From contig CAWJAF010000003.1 in assembly GCA_963840785.1 (NCBI GenBank), forward strand, positions 23,682 through 87,681: DNA of 64,000 bases, read 5' to 3'. Under the pieces are notes generated by a model. That model was not told the DNA's origin, ran no database searches, and saw only the letters and a program-made list of their open reading frames with translations. Origin of the DNA: an uncultured Pseudomonadota bacterium (lineage in GTDB: Bacteria > Pseudomonadota > Gammaproteobacteria > Burkholderiales > JALYOK01). The position numbers were made by a program, and so were the translations under genes. Shown piece by piece: positions 18,305 to 51,133 of the stretch. Within the stretch, counting starts at the first letter, position 1. Each line of letters begins with the position of its first letter.

Positions 18305-18312
18305 CCATATCT

Positions 18313-18705
18313 ATGAATTTTCGACTAACTGCGGTTATTAATCGAATTCTGATCGCCTGCATTGTGACCCTGTCGCTGCTCAGCGCTAGCGAATCTTACG
18401 CCCACGCAAAGCTGGTCAAATCCGATCCTGGGCGCCGCGCTGTGATCAAAACATCACCGAAAGAAATTCGCCTTTGGTTTAACGAGAAACTCGAGGCGGC
18501 CTATTCCTCCGCGACGTTATCCGAAGGCAGCGGAAAAACGATAGCCACCGCGCCAGCGACCATTACCAACGACGATCCAAAGCGCATGACTCTCACTATC
18601 GATAAACTTCTGCCCGGTGTCTACCGCGTTAAATATCGCGTTCTATCGGTCGACGGCCATGTAGTGGACTCTAGCTTCACGTTCACCGTCCAACCGGCGC
18701 AATGA
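18313..18705 (+). CDS. copC: CopC-domain periplasmic copper-binding protein
   Basis: Signal peptide ends SYA, then HAKLVKSDPGRRAVIKTSPKEIRLWFNEKLE...YRVLSVDGHVVDSSFTFTV, the classic CopC fold signature with an N-terminal His. Confidence 0.85.
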   Translation: MNFRLTAVINRILIACIVTLSLLSASESYAHAKLVKSDPGRRAVIKTSPKEIRLWFNEKLEAAYSSATLSEGSGKTIATAPATITNDDPKRMTLTIDKLLPGVYRVKYRVLSVDGHVVDSSFTFTVQPAQ

Positions 18706-24900: not shown

Positions 24901-25298
24901 ACGGCGATGTGATCGGCCATAAGGTAAACGAATGGACTCACAAATTGATCAAGGAAGAAGACGTTGACGGTAAAATGGCCTATGTCATCGAATCCTTGCC
25001 GCGTGATGCGGCAATCAAAGCCAATTCGGGTTATTCAAAGCGCATGAATTGGATTCAAAAGGATAACTTCGTAACCCTCAAGGGAATGCAATACGACGAG
25101 GCGGGCGAATTGGTCAAGGAATCTCGCTTTGGGCGTTTCAGGAATGTCGATGCCGCTAAAGGCAAGTGGCTGACCGGCGAGCTAACAGTAAAAAATGTCC
25201 AAACCGAGCACACTACACACATTTATACTGACGATCTCAAATACAATATCGGCGTTAAAGACGATTACTTCACCACCCGTTACATGGAACAACAATAG
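21924..25298 (+). CDS. RND-superfamily (MMPL-type) exporter whose ORF continues in frame into a LolA-like domain
   Basis: 1124-aa ORF. The first ~850 aa has two 6-TM bundles with large periplasmic loops typical of MMPL/RND exporters. There is no stop before the LolA-like part. Confidence 0.8.
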   Translation: MRSYIEFIVKFRWIVIALVAAATIFLSMRGSSLTVIIDPNSIVPRSHPFVATTLKVEEVFGSRYVAVIGITPKTGDVFQKSVLEKVQRITAELRTTPRIVKTNLLSVSARRAKDIVGTAEGMSVKQMMTEVPTTPEGMAELKKALQRNTAYMNSVVSNDWKTITILAEVRDAKPEEKKLKMGGFSYIAAKINAIADKERDETVDIAVTGYPAFLAMIEKYSGRMKWMLLAALVIIGLIHYEAFRTIQGLILPLLTPLVAVEWSKGFMGLADVPLDIFNMSTPILILAVGAGHAVQMLKRYYEEYNRLNPNPEPAVGLPPIAGSTSSNLFAWIGIWILCALPYAYFAWNGAPAGPWMPLSILLALLPWIYCYWIRPYKLASAQSIQASRQAVTDSILKIGPVMITAGLVAACGFFSLYVFDIISIKVFGIFSGIGILSVLIVELTLIPAVRSVLPPPREKEARMEREERFWDRLTNFYSNTLLGPKRDRIFVVAGVAVIIALFGMNRLAVESSLKKYFDPELPLLQSDAKLNERMAGTNNIYLLIEGDKVDAIKDPAVLKAMDQLQEFVAKQPNIGKVISIAEFIKRMNQSMNGDDPAFFKIPDKQETIAEYLLLYSMSGEPGDFDPYVDYDYRLANMVVFSHSDSTLEMRKFWEQTKAFAEKTFPPNIKVNVGGSVAQSAAITEVIVKDKILNVLQIASVVFVVASLVFRSLAAGLLVITPLLLSVIINVGLMGLLGLRLNVPTALTSALAIGIGADYAIYMLFRLREELAKGIDEEQAFRNVMRTAGKACLFVASAVAGGYAVQAFSRGYYPHTWNALLIGTAMLVSVTAALTVMPALVLKFRPKFIFNGAKNMKLSPAAATTIAVAVVAVLSFGHTKSAYAITPVEIMEKNFMVAKIADTTTQTTMTLTNKSGQKRVRKTAGVTKLEPNGIDNKRMTRFLEPADVKGTVSLLSEHSDKDDDIWIYLPSIKKVRRLVSSNKKDSFVGTDFSYGDVIGHKVNEWTHKLIKEEDVDGKMAYVIESLPRDAAIKANSGYSKRMNWIQKDNFVTLKGMQYDEAGELVKESRFGRFRNVDAAKGKWLTGELTVKNVQTEHTTHIYTDDLKYNIGVKDDYFTTRYMEQQ
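24486..25298 (+). other. LolA-like 'outer membrane lipoprotein-sorting protein' module with its own SD, ATG and signal peptide, in frame with the RND ORF
   Basis: GGAG lies 8 nt before ATG 24486. MKLSPAAATTIAVAVVAVLSFGHTKSAYA/ITPVEIMEKNF. Also DIWIYLPSIKKVRRL and DGKMAYVIESLPRD...YSKRMNWIQKDNF. Confidence 0.7.
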
Positions 25299-25311
25299 CG
25301 ATTGGAGCCCT

Positions 25312-26691
25312 GTGCAAATATCTAATTCCTATGTCGACTTGATTCGACACGCGCTGCGTAGTTTGTTTGGACTTGGAATGATCGTCGGATCGTCGATTGC
25401 GCTTTGCGCCGATGAGGGCGAACCGCCGATGGCACCTGCTGAACCGACGATGGTTCCCGCAGAAAACGCGGATGTTCCGCGTACTGGCTTTGCCGGCATG
25501 AAGCAGGAACTCCACGACTGGGGCATCACCGGCTCGTTGCGCGGCGCCTATTGGTATTCCAATCGCCGCTCGGACGACGAAAAACATATCCCTAATGTTT
25601 CAGCTTGGTTGAAGCTTGATCGTAAACTGATAAAAGATTGGGGCATTTTCGTCGAAGGTTATTTGAACCGTGAAGATCCGTTCGATACGCGCAAAAACAC
25701 CAGCCGTTTTCGCGAAGCTTATGTCGAAGGCCGCAGCGGCGATTGGGATTTTCGTTTCGGCAAGCAGATCATTGCGTGGGGACGCGCTGATCGTTTTAAT
25801 CCAACCGATAATCTGACGCCGCGTGATTTTACGTTGCTAGCGCCGGAAACAGATGAAGATCGATTCGGGTCAGTCTCCGCCAAAGTCAGTTGGAATATCA
25901 ATTCATCGACGAGCCTAACGGGAGTCTGGCTACCGATGTTCCGCCCGCACGCCTTCGCCGTTCCCGATCAGCCTGGTATCTCGGTTGATAAAGATACGCC
26001 TGACGGCGCGCGGCAATGGGCGTTAAAACTTGATCAATCGGGCAAATCCATCGATTGGTCGGTTTCCTATTTTGATGGCTTTGATCTCACGCCGGACATC
26101 AGTTTTGGCGGCATCGCCACGAACGGAAATCTCATCGCGAAATTTCGCAACAACCGCACCCGCGTTCTGGGCGCAGACGCAGCAACAACGCTCGGCGCCT
26201 ATCGCCTCGCCACGGAAATCGCGTTCACCCGCACCGAAGATAACGGCGGCGGCAATCCCGACATCAAAAATTCTCATTGGTATGGCGTCTTTGGTGTTGA
26301 GCGTTCGTTCGAAGATAATTTAACCATTAACACGCAACTGTTCGGGCGGCGAGTTAGCCACTATTCCAATCCCGAGGACATCGCCAATCCAGCGATACAA
26401 CCGTTCGCCGTGCAAAACGCGATCATTAACAATCAGTACGACAAGCTCCAATATGGATTGACTTTGCGCGTCGCGAAAAAATGGTTCAACGAAACCTTGG
26501 AAGGCGAACTCGCCGGCAGCGTGCTGCTGAATCGCGCGGGTTATTTGATTCGACCGAAAATGGTCTACGCCTACAGCGATAGCATTAAGCTAATCGGCGG
26601 ATTCGAATATTTTGGTGGATCCGAAAAAACTTCCTATGGCAGCCAAAATAAAAATCGCGGTGTATTTGCGGAAATGCGTTATTTCTTTTAG
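25312..26691 (+). CDS. Putative outer-membrane beta-barrel protein partnered with the RND/LolA-like pair
   Basis: GTG 25312 after GGAG. Signal peptide. Alternating beta-strand-like pattern. C-terminus AEMRYFF ends in Phe, a typical OMP beta-signal. Possibly DUF1302-like (unverified). Confidence 0.6.
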   Translation: MQISNSYVDLIRHALRSLFGLGMIVGSSIALCADEGEPPMAPAEPTMVPAENADVPRTGFAGMKQELHDWGITGSLRGAYWYSNRRSDDEKHIPNVSAWLKLDRKLIKDWGIFVEGYLNREDPFDTRKNTSRFREAYVEGRSGDWDFRFGKQIIAWGRADRFNPTDNLTPRDFTLLAPETDEDRFGSVSAKVSWNINSSTSLTGVWLPMFRPHAFAVPDQPGISVDKDTPDGARQWALKLDQSGKSIDWSVSYFDGFDLTPDISFGGIATNGNLIAKFRNNRTRVLGADAATTLGAYRLATEIAFTRTEDNGGGNPDIKNSHWYGVFGVERSFEDNLTINTQLFGRRVSHYSNPEDIANPAIQPFAVQNAIINNQYDKLQYGLTLRVAKKWFNETLEGELAGSVLLNRAGYLIRPKMVYAYSDSIKLIGGFEYFGGSEKTSYGSQNKNRGVFAEMRYFF

Positions 26692-26913: not shown

Positions 26914-28590
26914 CTAGCGCCAACCACGTTCACGCCAAAATGTGACCACCGTTTCGCCCCACGTATCGTCGCGCTGAATGGTCGCCGTTTGTGTTGGATG
27001 ACCGTCGGCCGCCTTGACAAGTATGATCGCCGTGGAATTTTTTGTTGGATTGAGAGCGCGTGGGTCAATTGCCGTAAATTGCGTTTGTATCTCCGTCATT
27101 TTGGCGATCAATTCGTTGAGTTTTTTCGAATCGCCGGCCGCAGCAGCAGCCATCAATTCTTGTTGCATCGCTTGCATCTTCGGCATCTGTGTTTTCATAT
27201 TTTTTTCGATCGCGTCGGCACTTTTCATCACTTCGCGGCCTTCCGACATTTTCTTGATAACGATTTCAGCCGACTCTTTGCTGGTAAACACGGCGCGTTC
27301 CCGCGTGCTGGCAAAATAGCGGAACCGTAAACTGTCAGAAGACTTAATTTCAAATTGTCCGGGTTGCGGCGAAAGCTCAGGAACCAACCCCGAGGTGAAA
27401 TCATCCGCGAATCCAGTACGATCACGCGGCCGCCATTTTTGCATGGCCGTCCAGCGAGAGCTATCGACACCTTGCAACAAACGTTCAGCCGAATCCCTGA
27501 CTGCCGGCGACGGATCGTCGACCATTTCCATCGCGAATTCAATTTCATCCGGGGATTCAGCGTAACCTAACATCAGCAGCGCCTGGCGTTTCAGCATGGG
27601 TAAATCAGCGTGGGCAAGCTCGAGTAACGATTCGCGTTCGATTTGCTCACCACTGCGATGCATCATGCGAATTAGATCGTACAAACCGACTTCGATGTTG
27701 CTTGCCAATCTATTGCACTGCTCGCCAGCCGTGCTTTCGCATGTTTGTTCCCATTGTGCAATTAAGTCTTCCAACGGCTCGTCAGAAATTGCAGCGCCGG
27801 TGATAATCGCAATCGAGCCGGGGCTCGTCACAAAGCCGGTTTTGCGTGCGCCGCCGCGGTTTTTGACAATCTTGCCGCCCTTCTTCGCCAACTTCTTTGC
27901 ATCCTTTGGCGTCGGTACGGCATTGGGGCCCGTTGAACCCTGCCAGCCGCAACTTAATGCGAGGTCCTTAGTTTGTTGCCGCAAATAATCGATACCGGCT
28001 TTATATGCTTCGGAATCGTTTCGTGCGAAAAACTCCAAGCTATCCCATTTGCTTTGCTTACCGGCAGCATTTAATTCCTTGCAGGTTTTTTCGTGATATT
28101 GCTCGTGGATGTAGGGATACCGCGCCAGGGCCTCGCAGGTTTTCTTTTGCGACTTCATATATTCCTCCTCTGTTTGAGGAGCCACAACTGGATCGCCATT
28201 GCTGTCCTTTACCGGATTGCCTTTCGCATCGTATTGAAACGCTCCGATGGTACATCCCGGGCTGCGAAAGTCTGTGCCCAATTCCGCATGGGCGCCATTG
28301 GCGGTACCGGCATTATTCTTAGGTGCTTTCGGATTGAATTGCTGCTGCATCAATTCGGCAGCGCGACTCTGCATCGTTTCGATATCGTTGATATTCGACG
28401 GCATGTAGTCGTTCCAACTAAAAAACAGTTTCTGCAGAAACTCTTGCTCGATGATTTCTTTCACCATCGCCGGAAGATTTTTGCAGGCACAACTTGGTGG
28501 CATGCCGTCTTTGGTTTTATCCGCAGCAGATGTCAACGTCGTGAAAGTTAGCAACGTCAGCACAACAATAGCGATCCCAATCCGCTTCAT
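26914..28590 (-). CDS. Secreted Cys-rich protein of unknown function with HEAT-like repeats
   Basis: 558 aa. Signal peptide ends TSA/ADK. 10 Cys in the first ~300 aa of the mature protein. DDPSPAVRDSAERLL is HEAT-like. ATG overlaps the upstream stop (ATGA). Confidence 0.6.
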   Translation of the reverse strand: MKRIGIAIVVLTLLTFTTLTSAADKTKDGMPPSCACKNLPAMVKEIIEQEFLQKLFFSWNDYMPSNINDIETMQSRAAELMQQQFNPKAPKNNAGTANGAHAELGTDFRSPGCTIGAFQYDAKGNPVKDSNGDPVVAPQTEEEYMKSQKKTCEALARYPYIHEQYHEKTCKELNAAGKQSKWDSLEFFARNDSEAYKAGIDYLRQQTKDLALSCGWQGSTGPNAVPTPKDAKKLAKKGGKIVKNRGGARKTGFVTSPGSIAIITGAAISDEPLEDLIAQWEQTCESTAGEQCNRLASNIEVGLYDLIRMMHRSGEQIERESLLELAHADLPMLKRQALLMLGYAESPDEIEFAMEMVDDPSPAVRDSAERLLQGVDSSRWTAMQKWRPRDRTGFADDFTSGLVPELSPQPGQFEIKSSDSLRFRYFASTRERAVFTSKESAEIVIKKMSEGREVMKSADAIEKNMKTQMPKMQAMQQELMAAAAAGDSKKLNELIAKMTEIQTQFTAIDPRALNPTKNSTAIILVKAADGHPTQTATIQRDDTWGETVVTFWRERGWR

Positions 28591-29969
28591 TTTTTATCCT
28601 CCAAATTTCTTGCTGGGTTAAACAGGCCCGTCAACTCTAAATTGAATTGGCTCTGCGCATTAGTCGGCTCAAGCCGCAGTGCTTCTCGAAAAGACGCGCG
28701 CGCGAATTCAACATTGTCATCCGCCAGATGGGCCATCCCTAAATTATTCCATGCGCGGCTTGAATGCGGCACATTGCGTAGCGCCTCCTGCCAAAGACGA
28801 ACCGGATTGCTCCAAACCGCAGCGCGCCATGCGCATAAAGCACTTAACGCAATCACCCCGAATAAAATGCAATAGTAACGCATACGCAGGCCATTGAAAG
28901 TCGCGAACCAACGACCCGCGCCAGCTCCCAACGCGATCGCCGGGCCTACCCAGGCGAGACAAAGCGGCGATTCGCTGATTGAATCCAATTTTGCGATAAA
29001 CGAGTGAGTGGGAAGCAACGCAATCAATGGCCACAGTAATCCTATCGTTAGCATCGGTCGCGTGTGACGCATCGCGACGGCAATCGTCGTCCAAGCAAAG
29101 ATCGCTGCCGCGCCAAGAACGGCAGCGACATAACTCGTCGACGGCAGCGCATGCTCGATCGAGAGCGCCCAGGGCCGCAGCAGCAATGACGCAGTCAAGG
29201 GCAACGCGGTGAGATTCCGGTACAACGATTCTAACGGTGAGCGCAGATCAAGTGAGTAGGCCAGCAATTCGCGGTAGCGTGAAAGGGCCAGCGCATACAC
29301 GGCCAGCGCGAACGTCGCAACGATGTATGGCAATGTCCGCCGCAATGCCGCGCCAATCTGATGAGAACTATTCGGCTTGGCCCATTCCCATAACAACAGA
29401 AGCAATGGAAAAATTAATGCGACCTCTTTCGCGGCGCAAGCGGCAAAATAAAGCACGATGGAAATGCCAATCATGACCTTGCGGTATGCGGGATTGCGCG
29501 CAGCACATTCGTAAAAAACTAGCGCCCACACCAAACACGCCGTCATAAGCGCCGAAGATCGACCACTGACATAAGCAACCACCGCGCCATGCGCAGGTTG
29601 CAAGGCGAAAATCAGCGCGGCCAGCATCGCACCGATCTGGTTGGACACAACGGATCTTGCGAGTCGCCACACGCCAATCGTTGAAATTACGTGAATTAGG
29701 AGATTGCTGCCAAACCAACCCGATGTCGATTTACCCCATAGGGCAAAGTCAATCGCGTAGGTCAGTCGTGTTAGCGGCCGGATGCCATGGGCGAGCCGTT
29801 CCCAGAGCAGCGGACCCATGGCCGTCGCGGGATCATTCAAAATATTGGGATAGTCGTCGTACTGAAAACGGCCGAATAAAATTCCGCCCCAACCGATAGC
29901 GATGGAAACGAATAGCAACCAAGCAAATGGATGGTCGATTTTCCTGATCAGTTGCACAGCACGTTTCAT
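28587..29969 (-). CDS. GT-C-fold membrane glycosyltransferase-like protein (PMT/TMTC-like) with C-terminal TPR
   Basis: About 10 TM segments. First-loop motif GRFQYDDYPNILNDP (the DD motif of PMT/TMTC-type enzymes). C-terminal TPR: AWNNLGMAHLADDNVEFARASFREALRLEP. Confidence 0.6.
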   Translation of the reverse strand: MKRAVQLIRKIDHPFAWLLFVSIAIGWGGILFGRFQYDDYPNILNDPATAMGPLLWERLAHGIRPLTRLTYAIDFALWGKSTSGWFGSNLLIHVISTIGVWRLARSVVSNQIGAMLAALIFALQPAHGAVVAYVSGRSSALMTACLVWALVFYECAARNPAYRKVMIGISIVLYFAACAAKEVALIFPLLLLLWEWAKPNSSHQIGAALRRTLPYIVATFALAVYALALSRYRELLAYSLDLRSPLESLYRNLTALPLTASLLLRPWALSIEHALPSTSYVAAVLGAAAIFAWTTIAVAMRHTRPMLTIGLLWPLIALLPTHSFIAKLDSISESPLCLAWVGPAIALGAGAGRWFATFNGLRMRYYCILFGVIALSALCAWRAAVWSNPVRLWQEALRNVPHSSRAWNNLGMAHLADDNVEFARASFREALRLEPTNAQSQFNLELTGLFNPARNLEDKK

Positions 29970-36735: not shown

Positions 36736-37806
<1,071 letters not shown>

Positions 37807-37813: not shown

Positions 37814-39652
37814 CTAGTTTAGGCCGGGAACGCGGTCCAGGCTCGCCAAAAATTTTTCCGGGGCTTGATAGCCGATCACTTTTGCACTTCGCAACTCGGT
37901 GCCTTTTGGATCGAAGAAAATGATTCCGGGCGGGCCAAACAACCCAAATCGCTTTAGCAATTCGCCGTGTTCATCCGAGTTACTCGTGACGTCCGCCTGA
38001 AGAAGGATGGCATCTTTGAGCTTGGCCTGAACTTGGCTATCGGTAAAGGTGTTGTGTTCCATCTCTTTGCACGATATGCACCAGTCAGCATAAAAATCCA
38101 AGATCACTGGCTTGCCCGCAGCGGCGCGAAGTTGGCTATCCAGTTCAGCCACACTGGCGACGCGTTTGAAGTCTAATGACTTATTTACTGGAGACGCGGC
38201 ATTGGCCATCTTGAATCCACCGAGTGGCTGCAGTAGGTCGCGGTTGCCGGATAAGGCACCAACTAACATCGCGATCCCAGCGATTAACGACAATACGCCC
38301 GCGCCCTTGCCAAAACGCAATATGCCGCTTGCACCTTGCGGTAGCGGATCGATTGCGGACAGGTAAATCGCGCACATCACCAACAATGCGCCGATCAACA
38401 GCATGGTGGCGGTCATCGGCATAACCGGCATGACTAACCAGATCGCAACGCCGAGTAACAGTACGCCGAAAACTTTTTTCACTGCGTCCATCCAACCACC
38501 CGCGCGCGGCAGTAATGCACCCGCTGAGGTCCCTATTAACATCAATGGGACACCAATCCCCAAAGCCATGGCAAATAACGCCGATCCTCCTAACACAACA
38601 TCGTGACTTTGGCCGATATACAGCAACGCGCCTGCGAGCGGCGGCGCAACGCAGGGACCAACGATGACGGCCGACAGCGCCCCCATTGTGAACGCGCCGA
38701 ATGTGCTGCCTCCCTTAACTTTGTTACTCGCATCATTAAATTTGCTCTGAATAGAATTCGGTAATTGTAATTCGTAGAAGCCGAACATTGACAGCGACAG
38801 AATTACGAAGACCAACGCGAATCCGCCCAGTACCCAAGGGTTTTGTAGCGCCACCGAAAGCAGCTTGCCGGACAGACCCGCGGCAACTCCGGCGAGCGCA
38901 TAGGTAATGGCCATACCTAACACGTACGACAAGCTCAAAATGAACGCGCGCGATTTTTCGATCTTTTCGCCGCTGCCCACAATGATGCCGGAGAGAATCG
39001 GAATCATCGGGAACACGCAGGGCGTGAATGCGAGTAGCAATCCCGCAACAAAGAATGCCGCGATGACGGTAAAGAAACCGCCGCCTTTGAACATGCCCGC
39101 AATCTTATCGGTCTCCGACGCACTTTCCGCGGATGCGGCGGAATCGCCAGTGGGGCCGACGGTCTGCGCCTGGGCAGATGAGATGATCGAACCCTCGACC
39201 GCGATATTCGCGTTTATGTGTTCCAATCCGCTCCACTTAAACGACTTAGTGATCGGCCGATAACACAATCCTTGTTCGCTGCAGCCGCGATAGGTCGCAG
39301 TGATGTCGGCGGTTGCGATTGTAGAAGCATCGCCGTCTACTCTGACCTCGCCTTGAACTCGATTGTGAAAAATCGCGACCTCGCCGAAATTCGGATCGGA
39401 CTTCGTCTCGCCTTGCGGAAGAATCAGTCGCGACGGCATTTCGTTCGAACCATTCTTGACCACGATTTTCAGATGGTCGCGATACAGGTAATGGTGTGGC
39501 GCGGCTTCAAAAGTAGCGATGAGTTTGTTGTCGCCTGTTCGCTGGACACTGAACTTGAATGCATCATCCGGCTGCAAGAAGCTATCTTCGCCTACTTCCG
39601 CCACGGCGAGCAACGGACACAATGCCAATAACATAAACAAAATTCGTTTCAT
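37814..39652 (-). CDS. dsbD: Thiol:disulfide interchange protein DsbD (periplasmic N-domain, TM core, C-terminal thioredoxin domain)
   Basis: ATG 39652 after GGAGA gives MKRILFMLLALCPLLAVA. TM core with AFTPCVFPMIPIL and VGPCVAPPL. C-terminal DFYADWCISCKEME. The 118 codons upstream in the ORF track overlap the neighbouring gene and are not coding. Confidence 0.9.
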   Translation of the reverse strand: MKRILFMLLALCPLLAVAEVGEDSFLQPDDAFKFSVQRTGDNKLIATFEAAPHHYLYRDHLKIVVKNGSNEMPSRLILPQGETKSDPNFGEVAIFHNRVQGEVRVDGDASTIATADITATYRGCSEQGLCYRPITKSFKWSGLEHINANIAVEGSIISSAQAQTVGPTGDSAASAESASETDKIAGMFKGGGFFTVIAAFFVAGLLLAFTPCVFPMIPILSGIIVGSGEKIEKSRAFILSLSYVLGMAITYALAGVAAGLSGKLLSVALQNPWVLGGFALVFVILSLSMFGFYELQLPNSIQSKFNDASNKVKGGSTFGAFTMGALSAVIVGPCVAPPLAGALLYIGQSHDVVLGGSALFAMALGIGVPLMLIGTSAGALLPRAGGWMDAVKKVFGVLLLGVAIWLVMPVMPMTATMLLIGALLVMCAIYLSAIDPLPQGASGILRFGKGAGVLSLIAGIAMLVGALSGNRDLLQPLGGFKMANAASPVNKSLDFKRVASVAELDSQLRAAAGKPVILDFYADWCISCKEMEHNTFTDSQVQAKLKDAILLQADVTSNSDEHGELLKRFGLFGPPGIIFFDPKGTELRSAKVIGYQAPEKFLASLDRVPGLN

Positions 39653-39689: not shown

Positions 39690-40862
39690 TTAAAACTTTT
39701 TACTGATTCCGACTTGCCACCATTTGGCGGTGAAGTTTTCGATGCCGGGACTGCCGTCGCCACCGAGACGCCAGGAGCTGCGCTGCTGATACCAGTCGTA
39801 TTTAAAATCGATAGTCCAATCGTGAGCAAATACTTTTGCGACTTTAAATCCCAGCGTGACGGCGCCGAAAGCAGAAAGGCGGGAGTCAGCGGAAAAATTC
39901 GTCGCCGTCGCCGCACCGACAAAATCCAGCGGCGGATCGCGATAGAAATTTGCGGCGCGTTGTGTGTAGTAGCGTATCGAGGGTCGCAAAGTCCAACCAG
40001 TACCAACCGGCTGATACCAAGCAGTTTCTATCGTGTGCGCGGCAATACCCCAATCGTTTTTGAAGTATCGATAACTCGTATGCAACGCCCCACCGACGCC
40101 GGCAAAAAAATGGTTGTAGCGCGTCAGCCACGCCCACGCGGTCCGTGAGTTCGGACGCTTATCAAAATCCTTATAGGGATCGGAAAAGTATCCTTTACCG
40201 ATCGAAACCGTGAGATTCGATTGGATCAAATCGTTGGGCGTGAGTACCTGAGTAATGCCGATTAAGCCATCGGTCGTCCGACGTTTTTCCTGCAAAGTAG
40301 CATTATTGGAAGAACCGATTTCGTCGTCCGAATAACCAACACCCGCGGCATACGTCGTGTTGTTGTTCGCACTCGACAATCGCCCATCTAAACTAATCGC
40401 GTTGGATTCATAGTCATGCTCTTTCGATCCGGCAATACCGACGCCGATAGCGGCACGATCGAGAAACGCCGTGACTTTTAAATCGCCGGCTTTGCGGTAA
40501 TCACGAATGCCCACACCTGACGCGCCGGATAAGGTGTTGTATGCACGCGGCGATGCGCCCGACATCGAGTCCAAAACGAACGCGCCTTCAATGGAATAAT
40601 TCTCCTTGATCGGTGTCAAAAAAAACATCGCCGGACTGCTTACTTTCATGCGTTCGCCGGTCTGCTGATTTTCTTTGTATTGAAGAAACTTAAAACCGAT
40701 CGTGGTTTTTTCGGGCACTGCTTCAGCCTTCGCAACTGGCGTTGCCACAATGCCCGGCAATGCCAATGCCGCCGCCATCAGCGAATTGGCCAATAACGAG
40801 CCGCTATTCGTCGCTGCCCTAGCTTGAACTGGCAACCCCTTAGATTTTTTCTTTAGTTGCAT
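39690..40862 (-). CDS. DUF3570-family predicted outer-membrane protein
   Basis: Signal peptide ends AKA/EAV. Beta-rich and Tyr/Gly-rich. Ends WWQVGISKKF (terminal Phe). Contains DSMSGAS (40571-40551). Family call is from memory. Confidence 0.65.
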   Translation of the reverse strand: MQLKKKSKGLPVQARAATNSGSLLANSLMAAALALPGIVATPVAKAEAVPEKTTIGFKFLQYKENQQTGERMKVSSPAMFFLTPIKENYSIEGAFVLDSMSGASPRAYNTLSGASGVGIRDYRKAGDLKVTAFLDRAAIGVGIAGSKEHDYESNAISLDGRLSSANNNTTYAAGVGYSDDEIGSSNNATLQEKRRTTDGLIGITQVLTPNDLIQSNLTVSIGKGYFSDPYKDFDKRPNSRTAWAWLTRYNHFFAGVGGALHTSYRYFKNDWGIAAHTIETAWYQPVGTGWTLRPSIRYYTQRAANFYRDPPLDFVGAATATNFSADSRLSAFGAVTLGFKVAKVFAHDWTIDFKYDWYQQRSSWRLGGDGSPGIENFTAKWWQVGISKKF

Positions 40863-41068
40863 CCGCAACCTCCACCGCCCACCCCAGATCCACCCGATGC
40901 GGATTCTTTACTGAAATAGGTGTGTTGATCAAAGCGTGTTTCCAACGAATCGGTATCAAGCGCCATAATCGGCTTGGCTAGATTGCCCTTTTGCCAAGGA
41001 TTTACAGGCTGCAGCGAACATGCTGACAAAAGCGTAAGGCACAACAATATGAGACTGGATCGAATCAT
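40853..41068 (-). CDS. DUF4266-family small lipoprotein
   Basis: Lipobox LLSAC. 71 aa. Ends ASGGSGVGGGGCGCN. Overlaps the DUF3570 gene start. Confidence 0.65.
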   Translation of the reverse strand: MIRSSLILLCLTLLSACSLQPVNPWQKGNLAKPIMALDTDSLETRFDQHTYFSKESASGGSGVGGGGCGCN

Positions 41069-41089
41069 CGCGTCGGTTCCTAACTAGAT

Positions 41090-41617
41090 TTATTTAGCCT
41101 GCAACAACTGCTTAATTTTCGCTTCTAGTTCTGCCGCTTCACCGTCTTTAAATCCACGATGAACAAGATTCACTTTGCCGGTACGATCGATGAGGTAAGA
41201 ACTCGGCATGCCTTGAAGATCGTAGGTGTTGGCGACTTTGCCTTCAGGGTCGAGCAACACGGTAAATTCCGCGGGTGTGGTCGCAAGAAAACTATCGGCG
41301 TCCGCTTTCGTCGCATCGACGTTCACACCGACGACTTCGAAGCCATCTTTTCCATATTTTTTTTGCAATTCATTGAGCCAAGGGAAGGTCTTTTTACAAG
41401 GCCCGCACCAGGACGCCCAAAAATCGAGATAGACGACTTTGCCCTTGTAGTTCGATAGCTTGACGCTATCTTGCTTCAAGCTCGGCAACTGAAAATCCGG
41501 CGCCTGCTTACCTTGATCGACCGCGAAGGCCGCGACCGGCAAAGCAAAGACCGCGACAAGGGCCAATTTTCTAACACTGGCTTTTGCGAAGATTGAAACA
41601 CTTGAATTAAATATCAT
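41090..41617 (-). CDS. TlpA/ResA-like periplasmic thiol:disulfide oxidoreductase
   Basis: Signal/anchor, then [21 protein letters not shown] (CxxC). ATG overlaps the upstream gene's TGA. Confidence 0.85.
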
Positions 41618-43548
41618 CGATATCTCCTGGCATAAATTAAATTCTGATTATTGAAATGAATGCCGTTCTTGTCCGCGTTTGGCATACGGCGATACCTCAA
41701 ATTCATTCGCCGCCGCGCCAAAATCGTTGTCAGACTAAATAAGAACAGCGCCGCTAAGATCGGATCGAAACTTTGGCTCGATTGAATCGAGCAACCACCG
41801 GCGCCGACGTTTGTCGCAGGCGTGGAAGTTGTTGGAGGTCCTGCGACGGCGGAACCGCTGCCGCTCAACGGTACCGTAAGCGTGGTGCCCGTTGCATTCG
41901 TCGTCACGATTAGGTTCGCAGTTTCGTGCCCCGGCAGCGGTCGGCAAAAATTTGATTGACACATCGCACGAAGCCGACGCTGGCAAGATGCCGCACACGC
42001 GTTAGCAGCACTGTTGTCGACGCTGTATTCGTCGGCGTTAGCTCCGGCAATTCCGATCGAAGCGATGGTCAACACTTCCGTCGCGCTGCTGTTGGTAATC
42101 GTCAATATTTTCGCAGCACTGGTTGTGTTGAGGTCTTGATTGCCAAAGTCGATACTTGGTACGCTCAGCGTGGGTGTCGGGAGCGCGACAGCGACGCCAG
42201 TGCCGGAGAGATCAATTCGCTGCGTCGCATTCACGACGTTCCCGGCGTCATCAGTAATTGTGATCGTCGCGCTTTTCGCGCCAACCGAGGCTGGATTGAA
42301 TGCCACGATAACAGTGCAGCTCGCACCGATCGCGATCGCGCCGCTTGCGCAAGTGCCGGTGCGCAGGAATTCCGTGCCATTGCTGTCTTGGATATTTGAA
42401 ATCGTTAAGGGTTTGGTGCCACCGTTACTCAACGTAACTGTTTTCGTCGTGCTTGCGGTGCCGATAGTTTGATCGCCGAACGATGGCAACGTCGACGGCG
42501 AAAATGTTGCCGCGGGCGTCGGCGTCGATGCAGCAAGGCCCAGGCCACTCAAATTAATGGTCGCGGGACTCGCCGTGCCGTTATAGGCGATCGACAACGC
42601 ACCCGCTTTTGCGCCTGCCGATCCGGGCGTAAACATGACACTGAGCGTACAAGTTTGACCGGCGGCTACAGACGTTCCCGCTTTGCAGGCCGTAGGGGAT
42701 GTCTGGTCTAACGTAAAGTCCGCCGGCAGTGTAAATGCGGAAAACGTCAAAGCTGCAACACCGCTATTGGTCAACGTGACGTTGCCGCTAGTCGCGGCAC
42801 TGGAAGCGCTGACCGTGGTATTGGGGAAAGTCAATCCGCCCGAAGGCGCATTCAGGCTCACGCTCGCCGAACCGCTGATGGTGCCGGAAACGGCCACATT
42901 TTGGCTGCCGCCATTGTAGGCGATGGCCAACGTACCGGTTTTTGCGCCCGCGACGCCTGTGAGCAAGGAAACAGCAATCGTACAGTTCGCGTTCGAAGCA
43001 ACGGCTGCGGTGCAATTATTCGCAACTCCGAAATCCGCAGCGGCAAGACCAGTCGCCGATGTGACGGACAGATCCGTGAGGCCGGTATTGGATATTGTGA
43101 TTGTCTTCGTTGGCGCGGGGCTCGCGCCGAACGCTGTCGTCGCGAAAGCCAGCGTTGTAGCCGAAGCAGAGAGAATGGCGCCGGCTGTAGGATTAGCGAT
43201 ATACGCGGCCATGTCCGAAAGTTCAGCATCTGTGAGAGCGGTACCGCCGAATGTTGGATTCACCCCACTATTCACCGGGCCAAAATGTGCCATGGTACCG
43301 ACACCACCATTGATTGCCGCCTTGGTATTTGCCCAATTGGTCCCATTAAGTATCTTGTTTAGATTCAGGGCTGGATTTGTTCCATGACACGTCGACGTCG
43401 CACAATCGTCGAGAGCAGAAATGTTGTATATGTTCGGCGTATTGACATAAAGTGCTTTGCCATTCGCCAAATTTGCAGCGACAGCGCTTTGGCTCGGGGC
43501 CAAACTACATCCCAACAAACTAGCTATCAAAATTCGAGAAAAAGACAT
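41614..43548 (-). CDS. Large secreted protein A: cytochrome c-like N-module with CX4CH, four choice-of-anchor-D-like Ig repeats, GGC/TM/RRR tail
   Basis: LLGC lipobox-like signal. GKALYV...[13 protein letters not shown]...TMAHF...[16 protein letters not shown]. Repeats carry two Cys each. Tail [33 protein letters not shown] (41805-41707), followed by 30 odd residues up to the tlpA overlap. A local frame excursion occurs at 41922-41994. Confidence 0.7.
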
Positions 43549-43763
43549 CCTTGCTCCTTGTACATGGAACCTCCAGTCCTATAACCAGCCGAGTGTGAGT
43601 TCGTTTATTTTTTGATTGACTGGACGGCTTGCTAAAAAGCCCATTACCCGGTTCCAACTCTTGTCAGAAAACCAAATACCTAGGTCAAACTTTTCGATTC
43701 ATTCACATTTATCGATTGCAATGATTAAGGGTGCGCAGTTAATACACCGCGCACCCTCGATTG

Positions 43764-46700
43764 CTATTGCTGGCGTTTACGAACTACCAGACCTAATCCT
43801 GACAATAAGAACAACGCGATTAGCGCAAGATCGGCCTCGCCATGTTTCAACATCACGCAACCACCGCCGCCACTACCGGAATTAGTGGTAGGTGTTCCGC
43901 CGGTATCGGCTGCTGCGGCATGACCCTTTAGCTTGACCAGTTCGGTCGTGCCGTCAGAATCATTGTTGACTTCAAGATCGTCCTCGTGATCGCCTATCGC
44001 CGTGGGTTTGTATGTAACCTTGATCGTGCATGACGCGCTCGGCGCAAGCGCGGTGCCGCATGAGTTCGTCACGACGGCAAAGTTGTCACCTTGCTTAACG
44101 GCGATCTTGCCGAGTTTCAGGTCCGCTGTACCAACGTTTTTCAGCGTTATTTCCAACTGCGCGCTGATTTGCCCAGCCTTGGTGGTCTCAAACTCTAACG
44201 AAATGGCCGGTATGCTCAGGATCGGCGTCCCAGCCGTTGCTGTCACACCTTTGCCTGTTAGTGCCACCGAATCCATTCCGTCGCCAGCGTCCGTCGAGAT
44301 GTCAACCGTTGCGCTGCGACTACCGGCGACGGTTGGTTTAAACGTGACATTGATCGTGCAAGTGGCGCCCGCAGCAAGCGCCGTTCCGCAGCCGTTGGTT
44401 TGGCTGAAGTCCGCCGTTCTGCGTGCCTGCAATCGCAATCGACTTCACTTGCATTGCACCGTTGCCGGTGTTTTTCAATGTAATGATTTGTGCGGCAGAT
44501 GCGGAACTAATCACTTGGTCGGCGAACGCAAGCGATGCCGGCGACACCGACAGTATTGGCGTAGCAACTGCGACACCGGTTCCGGTCAGCGTGATCGTGT
44601 CCGGGCCACCGATGGCGTCCGACATGATCGTAACAGTGCCGGTTCTCGCGCCAGCAACTGTTGGTGTGAAGGTAACGGAAATCAAGCAAGGCACGCCGAC
44701 TAGCACTTGCGTGCCGCAAGTGTTAGTTTGCGCAAAATCGCCACTTGCAACGATGCTAGTGATATGCAGCGTTGCCGTACCGCTGTTCGACAACGGTGAC
44801 TGTCTTGACGCCGCTCGTCACGCCCACGGTTTGATTACCAAACGCGAGACTTGCCGGCGTTAGTGAAACATCCGGTGCCGCAACTGCGATGCCGGTACCT
44901 TCAAGTGCCGTTGCCAACACGCTCGAGTTCGACGCCACGTTCAACGAAGCGGTGCGCAGCGCCGCCACGGTGGGCTTGAACGTTACGCTGATCGTGCAGC
45001 TTGCGCCGGCGGCTAGTGTTGCGACACAGGTGCTTGTTGCTTTCGAGAAATCAGCCGAGTTCGTTCCACCAATCGTAATGCTGCTGATATTTAATGCAGC
45101 CGACGCGCTCGTATTCTTGAGCGTCACCAATTGCGCCGCGCTGGTGGTATTGATGGTTTGGTTGCCAAAGCTTAACTTCGCTGGCAGCAACGTGGCCGTG
45201 GGTAACGGCGCTGTGGTGCCGGTGCCGGTCAATGCGATACTTCTCGGGCTGCCACCTGCGTTATCGGTAATGGTCAACGCGCCGGTTCGAGCACCTGCCA
45301 CCGTGGGCTTGAATGTGACCGTGATGGTGCAGTTCGCTGCCGGAGCAACAGAGCTGCCGTTGGCGCAGGTACCGCCAGACTTGGCGTAATCACCGCTGAC
45401 AACTATCGTCGACAACACTAACGCTGTGTTGCCGGTATTGCTAACGGTAACGGTCTGCGCGGCGCTCGTGGTATTGATCTGGACGTTGCCAAAGGTCAAG
45501 CTGGCAGGCAGCGGACCCACGACAGGAGCTGCCGCAGCGACACCACTACCGGTTAGGGCGATGGCATGCGGGCTACCGGTCGCGTTGTTGGTAATGGTGA
45601 TCGATCCCGTCTTGCTCGCAACCGTTGTCGGTGTAAACGTGACGTTGATGGTGCAGCCCAATCCGGTGCCGAGGCTGGCGCCGCAGTTGTTGCTTTGCGC
45701 GAACTCACCTGACGCTGCGATAGTGCTAATCGTCAGCGCAGCGTTGCCGGAGTTGGTCAACGTGATCGTCTTCGCCGCGCTGGTCACGTTAATCATTTGG
45801 CTGCCGAATGCGAGGCTCGTGGGCGTGAGGCTGACTTGCGGCGTCGCAACCACGGTGCCCGTGCCACTTAAGGCGATATTTGCAGCCGGCGCATTCGATG
45901 TAATTGCAACCGAACCGGCGCGCGCACCGGCGGCCGATGGCGTAAAGGTGACCGCGATAGTGCACGTCGCGTTCGCCGCAACGGTTGCACCGTTGGCGCA
46001 AGTTCCCGATTTGGCGAAATCAGCGCCATTCGTACCACCCACGCTAATGGTTGTCAGCACGAGATTCGCTATGCCGGTATTTTTCAGCGTGACGGTTTGT
46101 GCCGGGCTCGGTGAGCCGACGGTGACATTGCCGAAAGCCAAGCCAGTATTGGGCGTCAGCGTAATCGCAGGTGCAGCCGCTGCAACGCCTGTGCCCGAGA
46201 GCGAGACTGCATGCGGACTTCCGGCGGCGTTATCGGACACGGAAATCGTTCCGGTTTTCGCGCCGAGCGTCGTGGGCTTAAAGCTCACACTGATACTGCA
46301 ACTTAGGCCCGCGCCGAGACTCGCACCGCAAGCATTAGTTTGCGCAAAATCGGCGGACGATGAAGCAATGCCGCCGATCGTAAGCACGCCGGTACCGGTA
46401 TTTTTCAGCGTGACGACTTGCGTTGCGCTGGTGGTATTAATCTGTTGATTGCCTAAGGCAAGCGGCGACGGTGTTAGCGACACACCCGGTGTTGCCGGCG
46501 CGGTGCCAGTGCCGGAAAGCGGCAGCGTGTGTGGGTTGCCGCTCGCGTTATCGGCAAAGGAAAGGCTTGCGCTGCGCGCGCCGACTGCGGCGGGCGTAAA
46601 GGTAACGTTAACCGTACATGATGCGGCAGCGGCCAAGGTCGCGCCGCAGGTCGTTGTTCCTTTGGTGAAGTCGGTTGCGTTCGTGCCGGTTACGGTCATG

Positions 46701-47155
46701 CTCGTGATATTGAGCGTCGCCGTTCCAGAATTTTTTAGCGTCCCGATCAATGCTGCGCTCGTTGCACCCTGCACCACACTGCCAAAGGCAAGGCCGGTCG
46801 CCGGTGTCAGGGTCGCGATTGGCGCGGCGGGCGGGCCACACTGAGCTGAGATGTACGCAGCCATGTTGTCTACATCGACACTGGTCAGGAGGTTCAAGCC
46901 ATAAAACGTCTTAAGTGACGCCATTTCGGCGATACTATTGAACGCCAACACAATGCTCGCGTTGGTTGTTCCTTTGCAAATATTGTTTGTATTCTGAAAC
47001 GCAGTGGTGCCGTGACATCCCGATCCTAAACATCCCATGCCAGGTTTGGTTTTGCCTTCAAAAAGCGGTTGACCCAATGTGGCATCGCCCGCAGCAAACA
47101 CGCAGACGCTAATCAAAAACAGAAAAACTCCAATTACAGCGCGTAAATAATTCAT
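43764..47155 (-). pseudogene. Large secreted protein B (~1130 codons): CX4CH N-module plus nine Ig-like repeats plus GGGGC/TM/RKR tail, split by two frameshifts
   Basis: ORFs 44756..47155, 44338..44793 and 43764..44438 are consecutive pieces of one repeat protein. The junctions read KTVTV|SNSGTATL (near 44794) and IAIAGTQN|ADFSQTNGCGT (near 44415). N-terminus has GQPLFEGKTKPGMGCLGSGCHGT...DVDNMAAYISAQ. C-terminus is SGSGGGGCVMLKHGEADLALIALFLLSGLGLVVRKRQQ. Confidence 0.75.
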
Positions 47156-47654
47156 GGCCTACCCCTTCTAAACGTAGTTGTCCTATCGCGAAACCGTTCC
47201 AAGCCATGGCTGAATCTAGAAAGCGGTTTTGAGAACCCGCCGGAGATGAACTCTGATGCCTTAGGTGTTGCTCGAAAAATACCGTTATCGAGCCCGCAAC
47301 TAAGGTGAGAACATTTGTTATTGTGTGAATATTATTTGCACAATATACAATAATTATTATTTATGTGCAATTTATTTACACGTTGTTTTTTAGCGTTCGT
47401 AGCGATTGATTCCGACCGCGAGAATGAATTACCCGGAAATTGAGTTAAATATGGAGAGCCGCTCAATGCAAATCATGAGCGCTTTTACCTACTATGGATG
47501 GGTGTGCTTGCAAGTAACACTTAACTGCCAATCCTGGATACCGGGCCCCGCTCATTTTCGTGCTCGGTCAATTTCTGGGTGACTGCGCCTTTATTGACTA
47601 AATTCAGAACCTCGCAGAAATTTCTGCCTTTAAATAAATGTGTTGCGTCGAATT

Positions 47655-47672
47655 AATTGTTGTGTAACAATT
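47655..47672. promoter_or_regulatory. Palindromic candidate operator upstream of gene 47733
   Basis: AATTGTT-GTGT-AACAATT, perfect 7-bp arms, about 60 nt before ATG 47733, followed by CTGCACAA. Confidence 0.4.
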
Positions 47673-47732
47673 CTGCACAAATAATGATAATTCTGGGAGT
47701 GCTGCGAACTAACGAGCGCATTTACCATTGCC

Positions 47733-48629
47733 ATGAAACAGAAATCTGCTGGGCTGGAAATATCAACTGAGGTCTCATTTCGAGCGCTCCGAAAAATTTT
47801 TCGCCCTATCGTCAAATACATGATTGCCCGTGGCATTACCTTCCCGGCAGTAACTCAGCTCCTGAAATCCCTTTACGTTGAAGTCGCTAACGAAGAATTC
47901 CCATTGGCGGATCGGCGCGCAACTGACAGCCGCGTAAGCATGTTGACCGGAATCCACCGAGGTGAAGTGAAACGACTGACGGAGGATGGCGCAGCCGAAA
48001 GCGAAACTACGCCTAGCTCCGTTTCGTTGGGCGCCCAAGTTGTTGCGCGCTGGATCAGCGACCCGTTGTATCTAGACTCCCACGCGAATCCCGTTCCGCT
48101 GCCTCGTCATGCCAGCGATGGGGGTGACGCGTCCTTCGAATCACTTGTCGCCACTATTCGCCGGGATATTCGGTCGCGGCCGATGCTTGATGAATGGCTC
48201 CGCCTTGGGGTTGTAGCGTTAGATAATCAGGATCGGGTTTGCCTAAAGACAAAAGCATTTGTGCCGGAAAAGGGTAGTGAGGAAAAAGCATTTTATTTTG
48301 GCCAAAACCTACATGATCATATTTCCGTGAGCGTAAATAATATGCTAGGCGAACAGGATTCACTGCTTGAACGTAGCGTGTACTACCATCGTTTGACGCC
48401 AGCGTCGATCGAAACGCTAAAAAAACTCGCTACCGAACTAGGGATGCGCTCGGTTCAGGAGGTCAATCGTCTTGCGTCTCAACTAGATCGCCTCGACGGT
48501 GGGCGGCCCGACGCAAACCAGCGCATGAATTTTGGGATTTACTTCTTTCGAGGTGCGAGCGATGACATCGCACCGCCGCCGATTGAACCGGCCAAGATAA
48601 AACCGAATCCGCGCAGCAAGGGAAAATAA
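47733..48629 (+). CDS. Cytoplasmic protein of unknown function with an HTH-like segment (possibly DUF6502-like)
   Basis: 298 aa, no signal peptide. TDSRVSMLTGIHRGEVKRL resembles a helix-turn-helix. Family name is from memory and unverified. Confidence 0.5.
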   Translation: MKQKSAGLEISTEVSFRALRKIFRPIVKYMIARGITFPAVTQLLKSLYVEVANEEFPLADRRATDSRVSMLTGIHRGEVKRLTEDGAAESETTPSSVSLGAQVVARWISDPLYLDSHANPVPLPRHASDGGDASFESLVATIRRDIRSRPMLDEWLRLGVVALDNQDRVCLKTKAFVPEKGSEEKAFYFGQNLHDHISVSVNNMLGEQDSLLERSVYYHRLTPASIETLKKLATELGMRSVQEVNRLASQLDRLDGGRPDANQRMNFGIYFFRGASDDIAPPPIEPAKIKPNPRSKGK

Positions 48630-48637
48630 GGAAAATT

Positions 48638-50158
48638 TTGAAGTCGACGAATCGAAACCACATGGTGCTTTTTCTTAAGTTGTGCAATCGACAATTGCCT
48701 AGCCATTTCGGAATTACGCTAATCCTCTTAATCGGAAGTCTGCTCTCGGGGTGTGGCGGCGGCGTGGGTGGAACAGGCGGTGGAGGTGACGGCGGCGGGG
48801 GCAGTGGCGGCGGTGGCGTAGGCGGAACAGGTATTGTCTCAATGGGAACGGTAAAAAAAACGGAACCTGCAACTATCACCGTCAATAATACCGCCTACCA
48901 GATCACAGCAGAAACTAAAGTAACCCTCGACGGGAAAGGCGCGCCGGTGACGGATCTACAACCGGGTATGGTCGTCGAGGTGGACGCTTATAAATATACG
49001 GATACACAAATCACCGAGGCCGAAGTCATCACCTATAAAAATACGCTGACCGGGCCAATCAGTTCAATTAACGGAAATTGCGGTTCCATGGTAGTTCTAG
49101 GACAAATTATCGAGGCCGATACGCATACACTGCCGACACTGGTTAACGGATTATGCGACTACAGCATTGGTGAAATTGTTGAAGTTAGCGGCTACGTTAG
49201 CGATACCGTGTTGAACGCTATTCGTGCAACGTTTATTCGCATTAAGGCCGCTTCGCAAAAGGTCAACATGTCAGGGAATATCGCCAGCGTGTCGGCAGCC
49301 CAGAAAACATTTGTGATTGGCGCATTGACAATTGACTATGCAAATGCGGAGTTTGAGCCGTCTAACGCGGTGCCCGCGGTCGGTAGATTTGCAAGAGTGA
49401 GCGGCATTGCAACGGGCTTTGATACAGTCGCTGCGACCGAAGTTGAGATGAATCCAGAAGGCTTGGGCGGTAACGCGGGGAATGAAGCGGAGGTTACCGG
49501 GTTTGTCAGCAATCTGAGTGGGACAACGTTCACGGTGAACGGGCAAGCAATTAACGCAAGCAAAGCAAAAATCTCACCTGAAACCGCGACGCTTGCGAAT
49601 AGTGTGAAAGTGGAAGTACACGGCAAGCTCAACACGCAATCGGAGATCGACGCGAGCGAAATTGAAGTGAAATCAACATCTCCAATCAGTATTCAATCCA
49701 ATGTTGAAGCAATCAGTGCAAATGGATTGACGCTTTCGGGTATCGCCATTCTCGTGAACGATTCGACCCTATTCCAGGACGAAAGCGGCAATACGTCGAA
49801 ACTAAAATTAGCTGACATTCGCCCTAACGATCAAGTAACGATTTCCTGTTACCGAGACGCAAACGGAAATCTCGTGGCTCGAAAAGTTGAACTGAAAACT
49901 CCAAGCACGAAATTCACCGTCGAAGGCGATGTCGTAAGCGTGCAACCTAGCGGCTATTCGTTCTCGATACTTGCAGGCCTCGATATCACTGTCGTCATTG
50001 GAAACCTCACCGAGATAAAGAGTCATAATGGGCGATTGCTCAGCCCTGAAGAATTTCTTGCGCTTCTGAATCCGGGTTCGAGAGTAAAAGCCGAAGGTGT
50101 TCTAGGTTCAGCAAAATCACTTGACGCGACATCGGGTAAGGTCGAAATAAAGGATTGA
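48638..50158 (+). CDS. Lipoprotein with a poly-Gly linker and ~6 DUF5666-like beta repeats
   Basis: TTG 48638 after AAGGA. Lipobox LLSGC, followed by GGGVGGTGGGGDGGGGSGGGGVGGTG. Repeated G-x-[IV]-x-S-[IV]...F-x-[IV]-x-G units. Confidence 0.6.
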   Translation: MKSTNRNHMVLFLKLCNRQLPSHFGITLILLIGSLLSGCGGGVGGTGGGGDGGGGSGGGGVGGTGIVSMGTVKKTEPATITVNNTAYQITAETKVTLDGKGAPVTDLQPGMVVEVDAYKYTDTQITEAEVITYKNTLTGPISSINGNCGSMVVLGQIIEADTHTLPTLVNGLCDYSIGEIVEVSGYVSDTVLNAIRATFIRIKAASQKVNMSGNIASVSAAQKTFVIGALTIDYANAEFEPSNAVPAVGRFARVSGIATGFDTVAATEVEMNPEGLGGNAGNEAEVTGFVSNLSGTTFTVNGQAINASKAKISPETATLANSVKVEVHGKLNTQSEIDASEIEVKSTSPISIQSNVEAISANGLTLSGIAILVNDSTLFQDESGNTSKLKLADIRPNDQVTISCYRDANGNLVARKVELKTPSTKFTVEGDVVSVQPSGYSFSILAGLDITVVIGNLTEIKSHNGRLLSPEEFLALLNPGSRVKAEGVLGSAKSLDATSGKVEIKD

Positions 50159-50197
50159 GGATTTAAACGCGCTCGATTCAGGCACAATGCGACGCCA

Positions 50198-51133
50198 ATG
50201 ACAACGCTTTTTCGATTTAGCTTCCACGCCATGGCGAGCGAAAACGAACTCCAGCTCTATGTGAATGACCGCCCGGAAGCAGCCCGCGTAGCGGAACTCG
50301 CGTCCGAGGAAGTGCGGCGCATTGAACGAAAATTTTCCCGCTATCGAGACGATAGCCTCCTCACCCAAATCAATCAGGCCGCCGGCCGACATGCCGTACC
50401 TATCGATACCGAAACTGCCGCGCTGCTCGCCTATGCTGATGCGTGTTTTAAGAAAAGCAATGGTCTGTTCGATCTAACTTCGGGTGTGTTGCGGCGCTGC
50501 TGGAATTTTAAGGCAGCCCGTTTACCGGATCCCCAGCACCTCCGCGTAACGTTAGCATTAGTTGGGTGGGACAAAGTCCAATGGTCGACAACAGAAATCT
50601 ATCTGCCAACGCTCGGGATGCAACTCGATTTTGGCGGAATCGGCAAAGAGTATGCGGCCGATCGGGCCGCTGCCCTATGTCTTAACGAAGGGATCAATAG
50701 TGGGTTAGTAAATCTCGCCGGTGATATCCGAATTCTTGGCCCTCACCCAGACGGCTCGCCATGGCGAATCGGCATTAAGCACCCGCGCCAACCTGGCGCT
50801 ATTATCGCAAGCATTGATCTAAGATCAGGTGCGCTTGCAACTAGCGGCGACTATGAGCGATATTTTGAAATAGCGGGGCGACGTTATTCGCACATCTTAA
50901 ATGCGAAGACCGGCTACCCCGTCAGCGAATTACAAGCCGTGTCGGTGACCGTGCCATTGTGTAGCGTCGCCGGTAGTCTATCAACAATCGCCATGCTTAA
51001 AGGGCGGAAAGGGCCTCGATTTTTGCGATCGGAAAACGTTGGTTTCATTGCTGTTGATCAAGATGGAAAGATTAAATCCAACCTTGGATCGATGCTTGGT
51101 TTGCGTCATCACGACGAGTTTTCGTTGATTTAG
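50198..51133 (+). CDS. apbE: ApbE-family FAD:protein FMN transferase homologue without a recognisable signal peptide
   Basis: FHAMASENELQLY, FSRYRDDSLLTQIN, DFGGIGKEYAADRA, ATSGDYERYF and HILNAKTG are ApbE motifs. An in-frame TGA at 50156-50158 prevents any longer N-terminus. Confidence 0.85.
   Translation: MTTLFRFSFHAMASENELQLYVNDRPEAARVAELASEEVRRIERKFSRYRDDSLLTQINQAAGRHAVPIDTETAALLAYADACFKKSNGLFDLTSGVLRRCWNFKAARLPDPQHLRVTLALVGWDKVQWSTTEIYLPTLGMQLDFGGIGKEYAADRAAALCLNEGINSGLVNLAGDIRILGPHPDGSPWRIGIKHPRQPGAIIASIDLRSGALATSGDYERYFEIAGRRYSHILNAKTGYPVSELQAVSVTVPLCSVAGSLSTIAMLKGRKGPRFLRSENVGFIAVDQDGKIKSNLGSMLGLRHHDEFSLI

Follow-up and report, generated by a model that had tools for sequence, protein, structure and literature searches.

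The JDVT-CTERM class of C-terminal sorting signals was defined by one invariant Cys, an almost invariant Asp-Pro (DP) pair nine residues later, a transmembrane helix and an Arg cluster (Haft, bioRxiv 10.1101/2023.06.07.544157, J Bacteriol 2024). Its predicted sorting enzyme is MrtJ (NF033192), a glutamic intramembrane protease of the CPBP/Rce1-like type. In the same survey the protease was encoded within 4 kb for 17 of 36 clients, one client per proteome was typical, and some of the JDVT proteins, with homology along their entire length, lay in conserved DUF4266/DUF3570/TlpA neighbourhoods. Cleavage of the MYXO-CTERM signal by the protease MrtX has been demonstrated by experiment; it depends on the Cys and is accompanied by surface sorting (Guo, Haft and Wall, mBio 2025, PMC11980579). 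The passages of Meheust et al. (eLife 2021, PMC8238504) that deal with flavinylation gene clusters describe DUF4266 as a secreted small protein bearing a conserved CXC motif, found in a cluster with DsbD, ApbE, DUF3570 and a thioredoxin-like protein, and DUF3570 as a demonstrated ApbE substrate. Here we analyze two paralogous proteins, A and B, encoded on the minus strand of a stretch of 64,000 nucleotides (the window; contig CAWJAF010000003.1 of assembly GCA_963840785.1) from an uncultured bacterium of the Burkholderiales. Their C-terminal tails are very probably JDVT-CTERM sorting signals of the known class NF033191, and A and B would then belong to the client family associated with DsbD, TlpA, DUF4266, DUF3570 and ApbE.

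Both tails match NF033191, the NCBIfam model for JDVT-CTERM, above its curated cut-off of 27 bits. The tail of A scores 38.5 bits in context (E=7.8e-10) and 41-43 bits alone, and that of B 30.5 bits in context (E=2.4e-7) and 34.5 bits alone. In protein A (644 residues, 41614-43548, delimited from the list of open reading frames (ORFs) and from NCBIfam and Pfam matches), the signal occupies 41707-41805 and consists of GAGGC, Asp at +9 from the Cys, Pro at +10, a hydrophobic helix and RRR. The JDVT-CTERM-like tail of B, encoded from 43871 to 43767 at the close of ORF 43764-44438, reads GGGGC-VMLKHGEAD-LALIALFLLSGLGLVV-RKRQQ, with Asp at +9 and Leu where Pro is expected at +10. Each tail contains one Cys only (Cys586 in A), ALFL[FL]S is common to the two, and the basic cluster is followed by 2 residues in B (after RKR) and by 30 in A (after RRR). 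A G-x-G-G-C...D-P...RRR tail is also found in 51 of the best 120 homologues of A.

Two hydrophobic C-termini might resemble each other by chance or composition, with no common function, and the helix and basic part of the B tail does give weak sub-threshold matches to the corresponding generic segment of the LPXTG and PEP-CTERM models (14.4 bits for PEP-CTERM, against a cut-off of 16). Such a coincidence is extremely improbable, however, when the isolated tails of A and B reach E-values of 1e-8 to 1e-11 with NF033191, when a hidden Markov model (HMM) built from the homologue tails finds just two matches in a six-frame translation of the window, namely the A and B ORFs, and when the tail is kept in the 51 homologues and beside mrtJ in dozens of genomes.

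The models for the better known relatives, MYXO-CTERM (TIGR03901) and GlyGly-CTERM (TIGR03501), match neither tail at E<=10. MYXO-CTERM has the same tripartite plan, an invariant Cys and, in MrtX, a related CPBP glutamic intramembrane protease. It differs in that its tails often contain GCGC and a helix devoid of charged or Pro residues, whereas the A and B tails contain Asp or Asp-Pro and only one Cys, and in that it is carried by dozens of proteins per genome and confined to Myxococcota. The GlyGly-CTERM/rhombosortase and PEP-CTERM/exosortase systems likewise share the general plan, in which secreted proteins of Gram-negative bacteria end in a short motif, a helix and a basic cluster, but they lack the invariant Cys of the A and B tails.

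An earlier, sequence-only reading of the window had proposed that the two tails form an unrecognised sorting or lipidation signal. The features on which it drew (the two tails, the ALFL[FL]S core, the ending of the DUF4266 lipoprotein and the start of a divergently encoded lipoprotein) are all present where it placed them, and its view that the tails are C-terminal sorting signals, tripartite and MYXO-CTERM-like with an invariant Cys, agrees with the tail anatomy and with the NF033191 matches. The word unrecognised was mistaken: comparison with the NCBIfam CTERM models, which that reading itself had suggested, returns JDVT-CTERM above cut-off for both tails, and the signal has been published together with MrtJ and with the DUF4266/DUF3570/TlpA neighbourhood. 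Given this match and the published description, the signal is a recognised one and not new.

A broader form of the same proposal would make the DUF4266 C-terminus and the lipoprotein N-terminus related parts of a new signal whose enzyme is not yet known. It gains something from the superficial Gly-rich-Cys composition common to the four proteins and from the window's lack of genes for known sorting enzymes. It is nevertheless very improbable, both because a curated model of a published signal already accounts for the two tails and because the other two motifs have ordinary explanations. The DUF4266 lipoprotein (40853-41068, minus strand; PF14086, 85.3 bits over the whole model to the last residue) ends in GGGGCGCN, a CXC motif that lies within the PF14086 model, has no transmembrane helix and no Arg cluster, and gives no match to the CTERM models. 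At 24 of 25 loci its orthologues finish with G-x-G-V-G-G-G-G-C-G-C-N, so that this is the family's own CXC ending and not a variant of the tails. The divergent lipoprotein, a DUF5666 protein encoded at 48638-50158, starts with LLSGC-GGGVGGTGGGG, which is a Gly-rich linker preceded by an ordinary lipobox.

The bodies of A and B have the architecture of JDVT-CTERM clients. Each has a Sec signal peptide (a hydrophobic N-terminus identified by direct reading of the sequence), an N-terminal cytochrome c-like domain containing CX4CH, and immunoglobulin-like (Ig-like) repeats of the choice-of-anchor D type. There are four choice-of-anchor D domains in A (NF012200, 179.5 bits in four stretches) and about ten in B. 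Weak Pfam matches and a weak resemblance to cytochromes c6, c552 and c555 point to the cytochrome c-like domain. A protein in public data, P0001, is identical to A. The sequence LLGC in the signal peptide of A was considered as a lipobox and rejected, as it is not conserved in orthologues. The CX4CH motifs are CATSTCH in A (43384-43404) and CLGSGCH in B (47012-47032). Among the 51 tail-bearing homologues, CX4CH occurs in 26 and the usual CX2CH in 19, at a similar distance from the N-terminus (positions 28-53); such a mixture is unusual inside one family.

Protein A continues for 30 residues beyond the Arg cluster, up to a TGA that overlaps the tlpA start codon (ATGA); this basic, presumably cytoplasmic extension and its stop codon occupy 41614-41706. 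The sequence-only reading took the extension for read-through of a lost stop codon, an explanation that holds for its end and fails for the rest. P0002, which is 73% identical to A, has a homologous extension of 24 residues ending ...QHLI, with tlpA beginning 14 nucleotides on, and the extension in locus L001 is 21 residues long. Clients encoded beside mrtJ likewise run 1-29 residues past the basic cluster (28 in L012, 29 in L047, 22 in L006). From these comparisons the extension of A is for the most part ancestral. In the DNA comparison with L001, TAT at 41632-41634 aligns with the TAG stop of that locus, which indicates that only the last six codons (YARRYR) are read-through. These six codons cross the tlpA Shine-Dalgarno sequence (AGGAGA) to the ATGA overlap. 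An independent Logan assembly, L008, is identical to the window over 2839 nucleotides, so that the loss of the stop codon in A is not an assembly error.

Two +1 frameshifts, near 44798 and 44419, break the gene for protein B (43764-47155, minus strand) into three ORFs. Aligned with the intact protein P0007 (1126 residues), it is colinear and changes frame twice, at single-base insertions, and its three pieces are still homologous. Intact B orthologues of 1121-1126 residues are present in L001-L004 and L007. Because of the two frameshifts, the B tail is out of frame with its N-terminus, and only A joins body to tail in an intact reading frame in this assembly. Either the gene is a recent pseudogene or the assembly has a local error in what is a repetitive gene. 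A generally error-prone assembly was considered too; the remaining genes of the window that were examined look intact.

The gene neighbourhood also agrees with the JDVT-CTERM assignment. The conserved minus-strand cluster comprises trxB-like, dsbD, DUF3570, DUF4266, tlpA, protein A and protein B genes. At its end lies an ORF for a thioredoxin-reductase-like flavoprotein (36736-37800), whose syntenic counterpart in L001-L004 has a Pyr_redox_2 domain; beside it is the gene for DsbD, a transmembrane thiol-disulfide electron transporter (37814-39652; 612 residues from the likely start codon; NF001419, 591 bits). The DUF3570 protein (39690-40868; PF12094, 243 bits) has two SGAS motifs, at residues 103-106 and 114-117, which match the ApbE flavinylation sites demonstrated for the DUF3570 family. 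Next to the DUF4266 gene is a gene for a periplasmic thiol-disulfide oxidoreductase of the TlpA/ResA family (41090-41617), the start codon of which overlaps the protein A stop. An intergenic region of 577 bp (47156-47732) separates protein B from a divergent plus-strand operon (47733-51133) that encodes a DUF6502 protein, the DUF5666 lipoprotein and the flavin transferase ApbE (50198-51133). A scan of the cluster for promoters and terminators gave fewer sites than shuffled controls.

The locus is thus like the JDVT-CTERM/MrtJ system in its tail signature, its cytochrome c-like and choice-of-anchor D clients and its TlpA-DUF4266-DUF3570 genes. It is also like the DsbD/ApbE/DUF3570/thioredoxin-like/DUF4266 flavinylation cluster (PMC8238504) in its gene set, its two [S/T]GA[S/T] motifs and the DUF4266 CXC motif. 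The passages of that paper on the cluster do not mention a cytochrome/Ig-repeat client with a JDVT-CTERM tail, which in the window lies directly upstream of tlpA.

The organism itself is an ammonia-oxidising bacterium, as argued by the amoC-amoA-amoB genes in the window. These genes, two small unassigned ORFs and then copC-copD lie at 13832-20648. AmoA scores 278 bits, just below the NCBIfam AmoA_BACT cut-off of 290, and the CopD protein has a fused cytochrome c domain.

Elsewhere, the expected association of client and protease can be seen directly. In L005 (Massilia pinisoli) and in a betaproteobacterial metagenome-assembled genome (L006/L009), mrtJ lies 19 nucleotides upstream of a single client, and the order is mrtJ, client, TlpA-DUF4266-DUF3570-ApbE-DsbD. 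The L005 and L006 MrtJ proteins score 94.3 and 90.3 bits with NF033192, for which the cut-off is 75 bits. A profile scan of public genomes with a MrtJ alignment, based on one peptide pattern, found 126 loci. The 80 of these that were listed belong to Burkholderiales, Salinisphaera, Granulosicoccaceae and other groups; a tail-bearing ORF lies near about 53 of them, and TlpA-DUF4266-DUF3570 genes accompany about 20.

In the window, MrtJ is missing. Searched against all 64 kb in six-frame translation, two MrtJ HMMs gave a best E-value of about 1, with positive controls at 80-151 bits, and a regular-expression screen for CPBP motifs across the window found nothing relevant. There is no MrtJ remnant in the intergenic region 47156-47732, which is the position of mrtJ in L006/L009. 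The window's multi-transmembrane ORFs encode AmoC, AmoA, CopD, an MMPL-type transporter, a TRAP permease, DsbD, an MFS transporter, ABC permeases and a protein with eight hydrophobic segments and a TPR match; none of those scanned matched the exosortase, rhombosortase or rhomboid models. The sequence-only reading had also seen no exosortase, rhombosortase or CPBP-type protease in the window, and in this it was correct. A protease for these clients in this lineage must therefore be encoded elsewhere or have been lost. A location remote from the clients in this genome is plausible, because only 17 of the 36 published clients had the protease within 4 kb.

Several observations weigh against the assignment of the tails as JDVT-CTERM sorting signals. 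Not only does the window lack mrtJ, but so do the syntenic loci L001-L004, which have the same B-A-tlpA order (with A 50% identical and B intact at 1121 residues), and the contigs L089 and L091, two separate short contigs from one sample that carry A-like (46% identical) and B-like genes. The Nitrosomonadaceae are absent from the 80 mrtJ loci listed of 126, and the family is not named for any of the 120 proteins listed of 2197 matches in a MrtJ protein search. The window and L001-L004 have two tandem clients, B and A, against the one per proteome that is typical of the family. The Pro at +10 hardly varies among clients adjacent to mrtJ, but every B orthologue has another residue there (DA, DI or DL), as do some A orthologues (DV or DI). 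The P0003 tail scores 25.6 bits, below the NF033191 cut-off. Finally, the JDVT-CTERM processing model is itself based on comparative genomics and on analogy to MrtX. Measured against the published JDVT-CTERM/MrtJ system, this locus is therefore unlike in the absence of mrtJ from 64 kb, in its tandem clients, in the missing DP Pro and the frameshifts of B, and in the 30-residue extension of A, which stands at the top of the 1-29 range seen beside mrtJ.

These departures raise the possibility, doubtful but deserving consideration, that the signal is orphaned: the ammonia-oxidiser clade would have lost mrtJ, and the JDVT-derived tails would now serve as permanent, uncleaved membrane anchors, holding the cytochrome/Ig-repeat proteins at the periplasmic face of the inner membrane beside TlpA and DsbD. 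The lack of mrtJ at the conserved upstream position and at the related loci would follow from such a loss, as would its absence from Nitrosomonadaceae among the listed loci, the relaxed Pro of the DP motif in the clade, and cytoplasmic extensions of 21-30 residues that are poorly conserved. Yet every A and B orthologue of the ammonia-oxidiser clade keeps Gly-Gly-Cys and Asp(+9), even where overall identity falls to about 46-50%, which argues that the signature is still under selection, and a plain anchor needs neither. Extensions of up to 29 residues occur in clients adjacent to mrtJ as well, and a distant mrtJ is common, with 19 of the 36 clients in the published survey having no protease within 4 kb. 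In this genome the search for mrtJ covered the 64-kb window, and the scan of public genomes used one peptide pattern. The helix of the clade has an ALFLLS-like motif, as opposed to DPxLWLL in clients adjacent to mrtJ. This clade-specific motif and the Pro variation fit co-evolution with a lineage-specific protease and also partial relaxation after loss of the protease.

It is also conceivable, if unlikely, that in the absence of MrtJ the tails are processed by a different enzyme, or that their Cys is used in thiol chemistry with TlpA, DsbD and the CXC motif of DUF4266 instead of in lipidation and cleavage. A link to thiol chemistry is compatible with the existence of client-TlpA fusions and with the Gly-rich-Cys endings common to DUF4266 and a cleaved client. 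The fusions occur in some Burkholderiales (P0097, P0101 and L084:8613-9923), in which the ORF of a JDVT-CTERM client runs in frame into a TlpA thioredoxin domain. Such a protein would form a hairpin from its JDVT helix and TlpA signal anchor, and cleavage at the signal would split the two proteins.

If A and B are processed as the JDVT-CTERM assignment predicts, the pathway can be outlined by following the published model and the experiment on MrtX. The client would be exported by Sec and then retained in the inner membrane by its C-terminal helix, with the Arg cluster and the extension in the cytoplasm. The invariant Cys would be modified, probably by lipidation, and a MrtJ-type glutamic intramembrane protease would cleave just after it. 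The mature client, freed to the envelope or the surface, might then work with the thiol/flavin redox module encoded beside it. What is observed at this locus and its relatives consists of the HMM matches, the tripartite anatomy, the synteny across diverged relatives, the position of mrtJ in other Burkholderiales and its absence from the window and the loci of the relatives.

Features were also noted in other parts of the window. A three-gene cluster at 8043-12530 encodes PrkA, a DUF444 (YeaH-like) protein and a SpoVR-like protein. At 21924-26691 there is a gene for an MMPL-type transporter of 1124 residues, fused to a LolA-like/DUF1329 domain, followed by one for a DUF1302-like protein, and the two ORFs overlap by about 100 nucleotides. 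The minus-strand region 26914-29969 contains two adjoining ORFs, of 558 residues (26914-28590) and 460 residues (28587-29969). Neither matches NCBIfam, and Pfam gives only one weak TPR match, in the 460-residue ORF, for which a simple hydropathy count gives eight hydrophobic segments.

The signal, its predicted protease and its gene neighbourhood are already published and represented in curated NCBIfam models, and the locus does not define a new sorting system. Only the tandem clients and the absence of an adjacent mrtJ in an ammonia oxidiser depart from the routine. The analysis places JDVT-CTERM clients in an ammonia-oxidising bacterium, and it connects the JDVT client family of Haft with the electron-transfer module (DsbD/ApbE/DUF3570/DUF4266) that Meheust et al. 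described. With its duplicated client and no mrtJ in the usual adjacent place, the clade provides a natural test of the dependence of JDVT tails on MrtJ.

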